Position numbers and translations under genes: made by a program | Assembly (NCBI GenBank): GCA_947591055.1 | Contig: CANQCW010000002.1 | Coordinates: 96-64,095 of the forward strand | Direction: 5' to 3' | Length of the DNA: 64,000 nt | DNA from: an uncultured Clostridia bacterium | Lineage (GTDB): Bacteria > Bacillota > Clostridia > TANB77 > CAG-508 | The notes under the pieces: model-generated | Seen by the model: only the letters and a program-made list of their open reading frames with translations | Told to the model about the DNA's origin: nothing | Databases searched by the model: none | In this document: piece by piece, positions 42,492-45,237 of the stretch | Numbering within the stretch: position 1 is the stretch's first letter | Layout of the letters: the number at the start of each line of letters is the position of its first letter

Positions 42492-44495
42492 ATGAAAATA
42501 AAAAACATTATAAAAAAATGTCTAGGCAAAAGAGTACAAATAAAATTAAACTATTATAGAAAACTATATAGAAATGATAGTAGAAAATCTTTAAAAAAAT
42601 TTTTAAAAATAAAATTATACAAATCAAAAAATATAGCCAAGTCAATAAAAAAATTATTATCAAATGTGCAACTTAGTGATTTAGAACCAAACAATAAATT
42701 TTATTATAGTATAGATATTTTTAAAATAATAGACACAAATATTGAAAATTTATCAATAGACTATAATAGAATTTTAAATTATTCACTAAAAGATTATAAA
42801 GAAAAACTAAAAGCCAATATTATAGACGAAAAATTTTATAAAGATGAAATAAATACGATTGAAAGTATTGAATTTCTAATAGATAGAACAGTAAAAAAAT
42901 TACAAGATGATAAGTGCGATGAAAACATAATTAATAATATAAAGAATATTAAAGATAAAAAGGCAAATAGTTTATATGAAGCTTTACAAAGAATATTATT
43001 TTTTAATCAATTGTTATGGCAAACAAGTCATAAATTAAACGGATTAGGAAGATTAGACATAATCCTTTATCCATATTATAAAAAAGATATAGAAAATGAA
43101 ATTATAAATGAAGAAGAAGCAAAAAATTTAATAAAAGAATTTCTAACTACTCTACATAAATATTATGAAAGAAAAAGCAATGTGCTATTAGGAGATACAG
43201 GTCAGATTATTGAATTAGGTGGAAAAGACAAAAACGGAAAATATCAATATAATGAATTAACATATATTTTCATAGAATTAACAAAAGAACTACAATTACC
43301 AGATCCTAAAATATTACTAAGAGTATCTTCTGAAACTCCAAGAGATTTAATTGAAACATCTTTGAAATGTATACAAACAGGAATTGGGTGTCCTCTTTTT
43401 GCTAATGATGATGTTGTTATAGATAAGTTAATTAATTTTGGATATGAAAAAGAAGACGCATATGAATATGGAACATCAGCATGTTGGGAGCCATTTATAA
43501 TTGGAAAGTCATTAGATCAAAATAATTTAAAAAGTATAAATTTTTTACAACCATTTGAAAACTTGTTAGAAGTAGAAAATGTAGAAGATATAAAATCAAC
43601 TCAGCAATTAGTAAGTTTATATAAGAAATATTTAGAAGAATATCTAGATAATTTTATAAAAGAGATAGAAAATAAAAAATTCAATGATGATCCAATATTA
43701 TCATTATTTACAGATGATTGTATAGAAAAAAATTTAGATATATCAAAAGGTGGAGCAAAATATAATCATTATGGCTTTACTGGAGTAGGATTATCTAATT
43801 TAATAAATTCTATAAAAAATGTAGAAATAATTATATTTAAAAATAAAGAAATGTCATTTTCAAATTTAAATGATGCTAGAAAAAATAACTATGAAAATAA
43901 TGAAGAATTAATAAACAAGTTAAAGAATCAAAAAATTAAATATGGAACAGATTATGAAGAAATAATCAATATTACAAATGATATAATAAAATACACAACT
44001 CAAGTAATTAATAAATATAAAAATCCATTAGGCGGAAAATATAAATTTGGATTAAGTGCTCCAAGTTATATTGACTGTTCTAAAAATTTTCCAGCATCTT
44101 TTGATGGAAGAAAAAATGGAGAACCATTTGGTGTACATATATCAAGTAGTATAGAAAACGGATATACAGAACTAATTCAATTTGCATCTAAATTAGATTA
44201 TAATGAGAATAGATTTAATGGTAATGTTGTTGATTTTATTGTATCACCTAGTTTTATAGAAAATAACTTTGATAAATTTGTAGATTTTATAAAATTAAGC
44301 ATACAAAATGGATTCTTTGAAATGCAAATGAATGTAGTAAGTAGTACTACACTTATAGAAGCTAGAAATAATCCTGAAAAATTTCCAAATCTTATAGTTA
44401 GAGTATGGGGCTTTAGTGCATATTTTAATGATTTGCCTGATCAATACAAAGATTATTTAATAGAAAGGGCATTAAAAAGTGAAAATAATAGTTAG
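42492..44495 (+). CDS. short glycyl-radical enzyme (PFL-like fold), unknown substrate
   Basis: GLGRLDIILYPYY, Cys loop YGTSAC(331)WEP, and C-terminal glycyl-radical motif LIVRVWG(640)FSAYFNDL 27 aa from the end. Confidence 0.8.
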   Translation: MKIKNIIKKCLGKRVQIKLNYYRKLYRNDSRKSLKKFLKIKLYKSKNIAKSIKKLLSNVQLSDLEPNNKFYYSIDIFKIIDTNIENLSIDYNRILNYSLKDYKEKLKANIIDEKFYKDEINTIESIEFLIDRTVKKLQDDKCDENIINNIKNIKDKKANSLYEALQRILFFNQLLWQTSHKLNGLGRLDIILYPYYKKDIENEIINEEEAKNLIKEFLTTLHKYYERKSNVLLGDTGQIIELGGKDKNGKYQYNELTYIFIELTKELQLPDPKILLRVSSETPRDLIETSLKCIQTGIGCPLFANDDVVIDKLINFGYEKEDAYEYGTSACWEPFIIGKSLDQNNLKSINFLQPFENLLEVENVEDIKSTQQLVSLYKKYLEEYLDNFIKEIENKKFNDDPILSLFTDDCIEKNLDISKGGAKYNHYGFTGVGLSNLINSIKNVEIIIFKNKEMSFSNLNDARKNNYENNEELINKLKNQKIKYGTDYEEIINITNDIIKYTTQVINKYKNPLGGKYKFGLSAPSYIDCSKNFPASFDGRKNGEPFGVHISSSIENGYTELIQFASKLDYNENRFNGNVVDFIVSPSFIENNFDKFVDFIKLSIQNGFFEMQMNVVSSTTLIEARNNPEKFPNLIVRVWGFSAYFNDLPDQYKDYLIERALKSENNS

Positions 44496-45237
44496 TAATA
44501 TACAAAGATTCTGTCTTCAAGATGGACCAGGAATTAGGACTATAGTATTTTTTAAAGGTTGCAATCTTAACTGTCCATGGTGCTCAAATCCTGAAAACAT
44601 AAATCCAAATATGGAAAGCTACAGAGAAAATAATGAAATTAATACCTATGGTTATGAAATTAGTTTAGAAGATTTAGAAAAAGAAATACTAAAAGACCAG
44701 TTGTATTATAAAAGCGGAGGAGGAGTAACATTTTCTGGAGGAGAGTGTTTATTACAATTTGAAAAGATTGAAGAACTATTAAAAAGACTTAAAGAAAATA
44801 GAATAAATATATGCATAGAAACAGCTTTATCAGTGCCACAGAAATATGTAGATATAGCAGTTAAATATGTAGATGAATTTATAATTGATATTAAAATATT
44901 AGATGAAGATAATATAAACAAAATCAATGGAAATGTACAATTATATTTGAATAATATTCAAGAAGTTTTTAAAAACAATAAAAAAGTTATATTTAGAATT
45001 CCATTGGTTCCAAACTATATATTAACTGATAAAAATATGAAAAAGATAATAGAATTTATAGAACAATATAAACCTTCAAAGGTAGAGTTATTTAAGATAC
45101 ATAGATTAGGAGAGAAAAAATATAAAACTTTAGGAAAAATAATGCCAGAATTTGAAGAAGTTAACGATTATATAATAAATGAAATCGAAGAAAAAATAAA
45201 AAGCATAGATGTAGATGTAGAATATATTAAAATATAA
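44479..45237 (+). CDS. glycyl-radical enzyme activating protein (radical SAM, PflA-like)
   Basis: [26 protein letters not shown] (CX3CX2C) and [12 protein letters not shown]. 252 aa with no ferredoxin-like insert. A GTG start overlaps the GRE gene by 17 nt. Confidence 0.85.
   Translation: [252 protein letters not shown]

Follow-up and report, generated by a model that had tools for sequence, protein, structure and literature searches.

The glycyl radical enzymes (GREs) with which the enzyme of this study is best compared are known from catabolism. A review of the superfamily from June 2026 (PMC13450708) divides it into formate lyases, decarboxylases, X-succinate synthases, C-O/C-N/C-S eliminases, isomerases and aminoacyl-radical enzymes, and gives PFL-like GREs in catabolism only. 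Every PFL-like GRE whose function is known comes from bacteria, with no archaeal one that has an assigned function, and the terms "polysaccharide", "capsul", "glycan", "cell wall" and "biosynthetic" do not occur in the review (PMC13450708). PflD, the closest of these enzymes by sequence, and YbiW are isomerases of 1,5-anhydromannitol-6-P and 1,5-anhydroglucitol-6-P in a catabolic "anhydroglycolysis" (PMC13450708). Our subject is a short PFL-like GRE of 667 amino acids (aa) and its radical S-adenosylmethionine (radical-SAM) activase, encoded by overlapping genes in a 64,000-nucleotide stretch of DNA from an uncultured Clostridia bacterium. This stretch, called the window below, has a G+C content of about 25%, and the two genes lie in it within an operon for a wall glycan. 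The locus exemplifies a GRE family that is widespread and so far undescribed. We consider it probable that the GRE and the activase work as a functional pair, a tailoring module of surface-glycan biosynthesis that cleaves a sugar C-O bond by chemistry of the CXE type. What is new are the proposed tailoring role in surface-glycan assembly, the truncated architecture, the basic or fused N-terminal docking module and the short activase.

An earlier reading of the window, made from its sequence only, had held that no GRE was known to be assigned to a surface glycan. We found nothing to contradict this: a full-text literature search for GREs together with polysaccharide, capsule, flippase, galactofuranose or glycosyltransferase returned nothing relevant and no paper linking the two subjects. 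To our knowledge, class III ribonucleotide reductase (NrdD/NrdG) is the only established anabolic GRE. NrdD removes a hydroxyl from the vicinal diol of a furanose. It represents a different branch of GREs and the analogy is functional only. The window GRE has no NrdD match in Pfam or NCBIfam, and the activase scores 70 bits to NrdG2, for which the cutoff is 131. The AprD4 diol dehydratase, DesII and the NeoN epimerase abstract hydrogen from a sugar carbinol carbon by a radical route, leading to deoxygenation or epimerisation in glycoside biosynthesis. These enzymes belong to antibiotic pathways and use stoichiometric or catalytic SAM directly, whereas the chemistry of the window GRE would run from a stored protein glycyl radical.

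The enzyme and its activase

The fingerprints by which the sequence-only reading had recognised the 667-aa product as a GRE, namely GLGRLDIILYPYY at residues 184-196, the Cys loop and the C-terminal radical motif, are all present, its coordinates being exact (Table 1), and Pfam matches the protein to PFL-like (PF02901, E=5e-79) and Gly_radical (PF01228, E=5e-13). A phmmer search against all PDB chains gave PflD as the best match (8ID0, E=1e-60; 8YJO), followed by glycerol dehydratase (GD, 1R8W), A. fulgidus PFL2 and propanediol dehydratase (PD), while the match to PFL itself is confined to the Gly loop. As had been proposed, the Cys and Gly fall on catalytic positions: C331 aligns with the catalytic Cys, E333 with the Glu of the CXE motif and G640 with the radical Gly of GD and PflD. 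The stretch C331-W-E333 is aligned to the GCVE of GD (C433/E435) and PflD, and RVWGFS to the RVAGYS of both. An AlphaFold2 model generated from an input alignment of 31 family members (pLDDT 89, pTM 0.90) has the ten-stranded beta/alpha barrel of the superfamily. Searching with this model, Foldseek returned GREs only, more than 50 chains at a probability of 1.0 with TM 0.75-0.87 and at most 25% identity; TM is 0.79-0.87 for GD, PflD, PD and CutC, and GD and PD are the top matches.

Comparison with the two nearest groups shows how much is shared and how much has changed. PflD and YbiW (8ID0, 8YJO, 8ID7) have the same barrel (TM 0.86-0.87), the CXE and RVxG loops, and a sugar-derived substrate such as we propose for the window GRE. 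They are 22-23% identical to it, and the window GRE is about 100 aa shorter at the N-terminus, has Trp in place of Val as the X of the Cys loop, and is encoded in a glycan operon rather than for catabolism. GD and PD (1R8W, 5I2G) are C-O 1,2-eliminases that also have CXE, and their vicinal-diol substrate would fit a sugar diol. In this case the identity is 21-25%, three GD pocket residues are changed, the activase of the window is short and lacks the ferredoxin insert, and the role in the window would be anabolic, in a cell-envelope context.

We used the curated cutoffs of NCBIfam as thresholds for membership in a family. The best score of the window GRE is to the subfamily model TIGR01774, at 298 bits against a cutoff of 678. 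For the equivalogs PflD, HypD, CutC, HpfG, HpsG, HPAD, IAD and PflB the scores are 46-246 bits where about 1000 or more are required, a shortfall of at least 750 (246 against 1109 bits for PflD). The distant members of the family likewise stay below all curated GRE cutoffs. The Pfam YjjI-like model (PF11230/DUF3029) does not match the window GRE and gives sub-threshold matches in some relatives, so that the Pfam and NCBIfam scores rule out membership in YjjI or in any NCBIfam equivalog. Together with the identity of no more than 25% to solved GREs, this agrees with the earlier placement outside the characterised catabolic families, and judging from these comparisons the enzyme is a genuine CXE-class GRE outside every characterised family.

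The short length, to which the earlier reading had also drawn attention, holds against the 776-850 aa of characterised eliminases, and the shortfall is mainly N-terminal. Positions 1-159 of the Pfam PFL-like profile are unmatched and the match starts at 160; some 80-100 N-terminal residues of GD and PflD are absent and a basic helical segment stands in their place. In canonical GREs the missing region forms a conserved dimer interface (PMC13450708). Additionally, the pocket has been altered. H164 of GD, the general acid of that enzyme, with which the His of the PflD "GQGH" also aligns, corresponds to N86, which is invariant in the family, so the general-acid His that is characteristic of strand beta-1 in the CXE class is absent. 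D447 of GD corresponds to N345 and Y640 to S522, and H281 is retained as H180. CXE itself is the defining motif of the GRE 1,2-eliminases and isomerases, and GRE isomerases retain it (PMC13450708). The extra conserved cysteines C293 and C410 occur in PflD or GD too, which eliminates them as a family-specific second hydrogen donor.

The activase gene starts with GTG, preceded by AAGGG, and overlaps the GRE gene by 17 nt. Its product has the motif C28-X3-C32-X2-C35 and a GGE SAM motif at residues 87-89, and passes TIGR02494, the model for GRE-activating enzymes, with 211 bits against a cutoff of 174. Profile positions ~30-95 of this model are skipped, corresponding to the absence of the ferredoxin-like insert typical of eliminase activases. 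The earlier description of the gene product as a radical-SAM GRE activase without a ferredoxin insert thus stands. The label PflA-like has to be given up: the score stays under the NCBIfam equivalog cutoff for PflA, and the protein is therefore not a true PflA. By its motifs the activase has what would be needed to install the radical on G640, and the GRE and activase make up an intact pair as far as their sequences tell.

A family found with glycan-assembly genes

Homologues of the window GRE were sought among 5.8 billion proteins, and profile searches covered 1.84 billion representatives at 50% identity. More than 1100 homologues were found. The best 120 listed are mostly 650-686 aa long, with a few fragments, and essentially unnamed. 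About 90 full-length 50%-identity representatives score above ~450 bits, and lower scores grade continuously into related short GREs. For the genomic context, we scanned one genome per species (185,579 species) for two family peptides, L[IV]VRVWGFS and F[EQ]MQMNV, which gave 264 stretches with relatives and thus carriers in about 264 species. The counts that follow are from the best 80 of these, in which open reading frames (ORFs) were called and clustered and the recurrent clusters annotated; 39 of the 80 have at least 8 kb on both flanks of the GRE and are referred to as complete loci. The carriers include Lachnospiraceae, Oscillospiraceae, Selenomonas and uncultured Clostridia and Bacilli of the rabbit and human gut, besides 13 assemblies of Methanobrevibacter, the spirochaete Breznakiella homolactica RmG30, which is in culture, and one metagenome-assembled genome (MAG) each of Eggerthellaceae and Muribaculaceae. 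Those listed are all strict anaerobes of guts or rumens, which fits expectation because GREs are oxygen-labile. One locus, on an Eisenbergiella MAG contig (L076), has two GRE copies about 8.6 kb apart (21-1199 and 9833-11860), the first of them cut by the locus end and followed by a homologue of the 322-aa protein encoded just upstream of the window GRE.

Overall identity is only 41-67%, but in bacteria and archaea alike 92 of the 667 GRE positions reach a conservation of at least 97% over the 80 loci. These include N86, Q166-R167, D235, Q238, C331-W-E-P334, N345, K518, G520, S522, Y526, H549-I-S551, N576, N578, D581, Q612, N614 and RVWGFS, and their conservation is independent of a nearby Glf, c4 glycosyltransferase or Wzx. 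Deviations at catalytic residues occur in a few of the 50%-identity representatives. Since so many positions are near-invariant at this level of overall identity, it is most likely that all members of the family carry out one and the same reaction, on one kind of substrate.

Glycan-assembly genes surround the GRE in 39 of the 39 complete loci, from several phyla and from archaea, and the expectation that the polysaccharide neighbourhood is conserved among homologues was borne out. The activase is present in 78 of the 80 loci (tblastn), adjoining the GRE and often overlapping it by 17-20 nt, with a median length of 256 aa; this usual overlap suggests translational coupling. Wzx of cluster c2 is found in 56, for the most part either as the gene just upstream of the GRE or as the one that separates it from the activase. 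Glf occurs in 39, always on the same strand and within three genes of the GRE in 29. A GT2 glycosyltransferase (cluster c4), nearest to GlfT1 and rhamnosyltransferases, is found in 35 at a median of two genes from the GRE, DUF4422 in 24 at a median of three genes, and relatives of the 322-aa ORF in 19, within three genes in 18. DUF4422 has the GT111 galactofuranosyltransferase fold of WbbM and PamA (PMC12269835). Among the complete loci 24 have Glf, and 30 have an explicit galactofuranose gene if either Glf or DUF4422 is counted. The conserved partners are Wzx, the GlfT1/rhamnosyltransferase-like GT2, Glf and DUF4422 (GT111).

Other candidate partners did not hold up. A link to the CDP-ribitol pathway, which had been suggested by TarI, TarJ and LicD in the window, is not part of a conserved module, with TarI in nine of the 80 loci (median five genes from the GRE) and LicD in five. 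Pyruvyl transferase genes were seen in three loci (L065, L085 and L091), but phmmer finds them in only one of the 80. An SDR cluster, considered as a conserved reductase partner, is present in only 18 and lies at a median of five genes away.

These counts bear on the possibility that the GRE makes a small non-sugar block, for instance by turning glycerol, a 1,2-diol or an amino-alcohol into an aldehyde, and that this block or a derivative of it becomes a substituent of the glycan. In favour of this are the rank of GD and PD as top fold matches and the presence, in some loci, of cytidylyltransferases, LicD, TarIJ or pyruvyl transferases. The substituent genes are unconserved, as the counts above indicate, and H164, D447 and Y640 of the GD pocket are all replaced. 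Fusions of the GRE to Wzx and to GT2, described below, point instead to the steps of sugar assembly themselves, and we think the small-block explanation quite unlikely.

The fusions are of three independent kinds. Among the 50%-identity representatives, P0157, P0158 and P0175 (~990 aa) carry the c4 GT2 as an N-terminal domain, and P0204 (1125 aa) and P0231 (1053 aa) likewise carry the c2 Wzx. P0180 (815 aa) has a small Rossmann-like domain at the GRE N-terminus (residues 1-172). A 144-aa ORF related to this domain is the gene immediately upstream of the GRE in 10 loci of Lachnospiraceae. Inspection of the contigs placed P0157 in a locus of the ABC-transporter type with LCP and glycosyltransferase genes, and showed P0204 to be followed by the activase. 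The 322-aa ORF, as a possible source of the N-terminal part of the GT2-GRE fusions, was rejected, as it has no similarity to them and the fused GT2 is of the c4 GlfT1/rhamnosyltransferase-like kind. The 144-aa ORF itself (e.g. L058 9429-9863, L061 9427-9873) has weak similarity to the NeuD/PglB/VioB N-terminal domain and occupies the position directly before the GRE in every locus that lacks the adjacent Wzx and the basic segment. In L091 (11809-14421) an 870-aa protein with ferredoxin-like, FrhB/FdhB C-terminal and polysaccharide pyruvyl transferase domains adjoins a GT2-GRE fusion and its activase.

The N-terminal segment that precedes residue 70 in stand-alone GREs is 76 aa long at the median, with a median net charge of +12, against about -16 for the remainder of the protein. 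The window GRE has +19 in this segment, and its model has helices at 2-25, 33-39 and 48-58. For the GREs that are adjacent to Wzx (n=47) the median charge is +13 and the range +6 to +19. Those preceded by the Rossmann-like ORF (cluster c10, n=10) have a 39-aa segment with a charge of about zero and no adjacent Wzx. Members from Breznakiella, Selenomonas and Methanobrevibacter have the basic segment as well, so that a simple artefact of composition is less likely. We infer that the GRE N-terminus is a docking module, made of basic amphipathic helices, a fused Wzx or GT2, or a Rossmann-like adaptor. The basic helices could be directed to the membrane or to the cytoplasmic face of Wzx.

Very distant members keep the same array, with the order Wzx-GRE-activase-Glf around P0223 and GRE-activase-Wzx-Glf around P0246, and the GRE P0241 lies between GT4 and pyruvyl transferase genes. 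P0223 and P0241 have higher scores to the canonical eliminase models and activases of 304-305 aa, with Fer4 matches in the P0223 activase, and by these features they look like evolutionary intermediates. Outside the family proper, the glycan-associated CWEP/RVWGFS clade, there is an uncharacterised sister clade of short GREs (~689 aa; Cys loop CWEF, Gly loop RVWGWS) with 32% identity to the window GRE over 591 aa. It agrees with the family in the signatures N86, CWE and RVWG and in its truncated N-terminus, and differs by the substitutions P334F, S522G, H549N and F641W. Its loci L083, L088, L089 and L090 (P0253, P0256, P0281 and P0247) have as neighbours MFS sugar transporters and aldose 1-epimerase, or Fe-ADH, NagB, NagA and a sialate esterase-like gene, or glycoside hydrolases and an SDR, or a SorC sugar-binding regulator. 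No curated NCBIfam cutoff is reached by this clade and no family is named for it. On these signatures and neighbours the N86/CWE/RVWG lineage appears to be directed to sugars, with one branch catabolic and the other recruited to glycan assembly.

Looking at the contexts together, one can ask whether the genes are a catabolic or salvage pair that hitch-hikes in mobile glycan islands, or encode a structural protein that has lost its catalytic activity. Glycan loci have a mosaic make-up and are often transferred, and the characterised PFL-like GREs are all catabolic. Set against this are the glycan context of every complete locus across phyla, the co-directional and tightly packed GRE gene, the three kinds of fusion with glycan machinery, and the absence of the transporter, ADH or microcompartment genes that accompany catabolic GREs and the sister clade. 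The catalytic residues and the activase are strictly conserved as well. We regard both versions as very improbable.

Proposed chemistry and points against it

If the pair is a tailoring module, the C331 thiyl radical would abstract hydrogen from a hydroxyl-bearing carbon of the sugar and E333 would deprotonate the hydroxyl on the radical-bearing carbon. The resulting ketyl radical would expel the neighbouring C-O substituent, after which hydrogen would be returned from C331. The net reaction would be a dehydration or an isomerisation, yielding a deoxy-keto or deoxy-aldehydo sugar, or an isomer. The same radical mechanism is described for GD, PD, HypD, PflD and YbiW (PMC13450708). The reaction would take place at the cytoplasmic face of the membrane, where the GRE would be kept in place through the basic helices of its N-terminus or through a fused or neighbouring Wzx or GT2, and the substrate would be a nucleotide-sugar or a lipid-linked repeat unit, just before transfer or flipping.

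Our tentative candidate for the sugar acted on is one derived from galactofuranose (Galf), either UDP-Galf or newly transferred Galf. It is the best candidate because no precursor enzyme other than Glf keeps its place beside the GRE throughout the family, and because the exocyclic 5,6-diol of Galf is an analogue of glycerol and propanediol, on which the closest structural relatives act. Pectinatus is an example of a strict anaerobe whose glycans contain D-fucofuranose and 6-deoxy-L-altrofuranose, which would both result from the reduction of 6-deoxy-5-keto-Galf; we take this as a lead and not as evidence. A fuller scenario, which we consider possible but doubtful as a whole, is that of the first anabolic PFL-like GRE, docked at the membrane, that deoxygenates or rearranges a furanose, probably at the 5,6-diol of Galf, before flipping by Wzx. 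Its product would be a deoxy-keto or deoxy-furanose sugar without an assigned biosynthesis in strict anaerobes, and gut Firmicutes, spirochaetes, Negativicutes and Methanobrevibacter would share the module through horizontal transfer.

Several observations weigh against this chemistry. The leaving-group chemistry may differ from that of known dehydratases because N86, N345 and S522 replace H164, D447 and Y640. Given the change of His164 to Asn, another proton donor would be needed, for which the invariant H549 or H180 are candidates by their conservation. There is no consistently linked reductase, with an SDR in 12 of the 39 complete loci, which leaves unexplained what would become of a keto or aldehyde product. 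Fifteen of the complete loci have no Glf within 10 kb and yet the same active site, so that perhaps Galf is not the substrate or glf lies elsewhere in the genome. As a rule the active site of a GRE is buried and accepts small substrates (PMC13450708), which disfavours a lipid-linked oligosaccharide as the substrate.

Some of these points would be accommodated if the enzyme were a radical isomerase or epimerase and not a dehydratase, for example one that epimerises Galf at C5 to L-altrofuranose or rearranges a C-O bond as PflD and YbiW do. Such an enzyme needs no redox partner, and it is the GRE and activase alone that are universally conserved, with no consistent reductase. The best sequence match, PflD, is an isomerase, GRE isomerases retain CXE, and the general-acid His is replaced by Asn. 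However, no GRE epimerase is known, the sharing of C293 and C410 with PflD or GD leaves no family-specific second hydrogen donor, and the case for it is one of inference only; we hold this alternative to be unlikely. Our preferred explanation is a tailoring module with CXE-type cleavage of a sugar C-O bond, in line with the radical dehydration or bond cleavage that the earlier reading had put forward as plausible.

The window locus and the meaning of the module

The annotation of the surrounding genes by Pfam and NCBIfam agrees with the earlier reading for LCP, the priming transferase, the polymerase, TarIJ, LicD, Wzx, the 322-aa gene and glf (Table 1). The operon upstream of Wzx consists of LCP, a WbaP-type phosphoglycosyl transferase (PGT), glucose-6-phosphate isomerase (PGI), Wzy-GT2, Acyl_transf_3, a UbiA-like protein, a 511-aa membrane protein, TarI, TarJ, LicD and GT2, and the order after LicD is GT2, Wzx, the 322-aa ORF, GRE, activase and Glf. 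The priming PGT, Wzx, Wzy, glycosyltransferases and an LCP ligase are thus present in one co-directional array, as in a Wzx/Wzy-dependent locus. Scans for promoters and terminators were little informative in DNA of 25% G+C, with the exception of the terminator in front of the operon.

Table 1. Coordinates of the features of the window, with the basis of each assignment.
Feature	Coordinates	Strand	Basis
DUF4422 (GT111-type) putative galactofuranosyltransferase	26253-27029	+	Pfam DUF4422 E=9e-93
Terminator-like site upstream of operon	27035-27066
Promoter-like site upstream of operon	27126-27155
Rest of Wzx/Wzy-type wall-glycan operon	27218-40002	+	Pfam, NCBIfam
PGI	29075-30385	+	NF010697 681 bits, cutoff 443
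763-aa fusion of Wzy-type repeat-unit polymerase and GT2	30408-32699	+	TIGR04370 (polymerase)
UbiA-family protein and the 511-aa polytopic membrane protein that follows	33757-36243	+	UbiA-family member nearest decaprenyl-phosphate phosphoribosyltransferase, 87 bits, below cutoff
Wzx-type flippase, GRE-linked c2 family	40028-41482	+	Pfam Polysacc_synt
322-aa GT-A-fold glycosyltransferase, no Pfam family	41498-42466	+	AlphaFold2, Foldseek
Short PFL-like GRE, 667 aa	42492-44495	+	Pfam, AlphaFold2, Foldseek
Basic helical N-terminal segment of GRE, residues 1-69	42492-42698	+	Charge, AlphaFold2
Cys loop C331-W332-E333, CXE motif (codons: C331 43482-43484, E333 43488-43490)	43482-43490	+	phmmer alignment to GD, PflD
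Gly640, predicted glycyl radical site in RVWGFS	44409-44411	+	phmmer alignment to GD, PflD
Radical-SAM GRE activase, 252 aa, GTG start	44479-45237	+	NCBIfam TIGR02494
Activase C28-X3-C32-X2-C35	44560-44583	+
UDP-galactopyranose mutase Glf	45238-46389	+	TIGR00031 422 bits, cutoff 304
Rubredoxin, 45 aa	46463-46600	+	Pfam Rubredoxin E=3e-13
2569-aa ORF	49113-56822	+	No Pfam domain at E<=1e-3

The AlphaFold2 model of the 322-aa protein (pLDDT 94) has Foldseek matches to K4CP, GnT-I and TarP. Its family has an invariant D130-E131-D132 and at least 677 homologues, one of them in Heyndrickxia coagulans, and no Pfam model; the modelled fold indicates an unclassified family of GT-A glycosyltransferases. 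Further upstream, PGI is encoded between the priming transferase and Wzy-GT2. The UbiA-family gene is followed by that of the 511-aa polytopic membrane protein, which has weak similarity to mannosyltransferases, and these similarities suggest that the two may provide a polyprenyl-phospho-pentose donor and a GT-C-type extracytoplasmic transferase. The rubredoxin ORF lies directly downstream of glf, with no terminator-like site in the gap between them, and rubredoxin could be an electron donor to the activase or to Glf. As a dedicated donor it is ruled out as part of the module, since it is absent from the 80 related loci. The 2569-aa ORF is downstream of RNase R.

A conserved and widely transferred GRE-activase module of this kind would extend protein-radical chemistry to the biosynthesis of the cell envelope. 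Many anaerobes of gut and rumen, Methanobrevibacter included, would be predicted to carry a modified sugar at their surface that has gone unrecognised, and archaea would, if this is true, have their first PFL-like GRE of assigned function. The compact (~660 aa) and probably sugar-acting scaffold could also be of use to GRE enzymology. Because the module is oxygen-sensitive and its consequences would be exposed at the surface, it may matter for host immune recognition, for phage receptors and for the serotype-like diversity of strict anaerobes.

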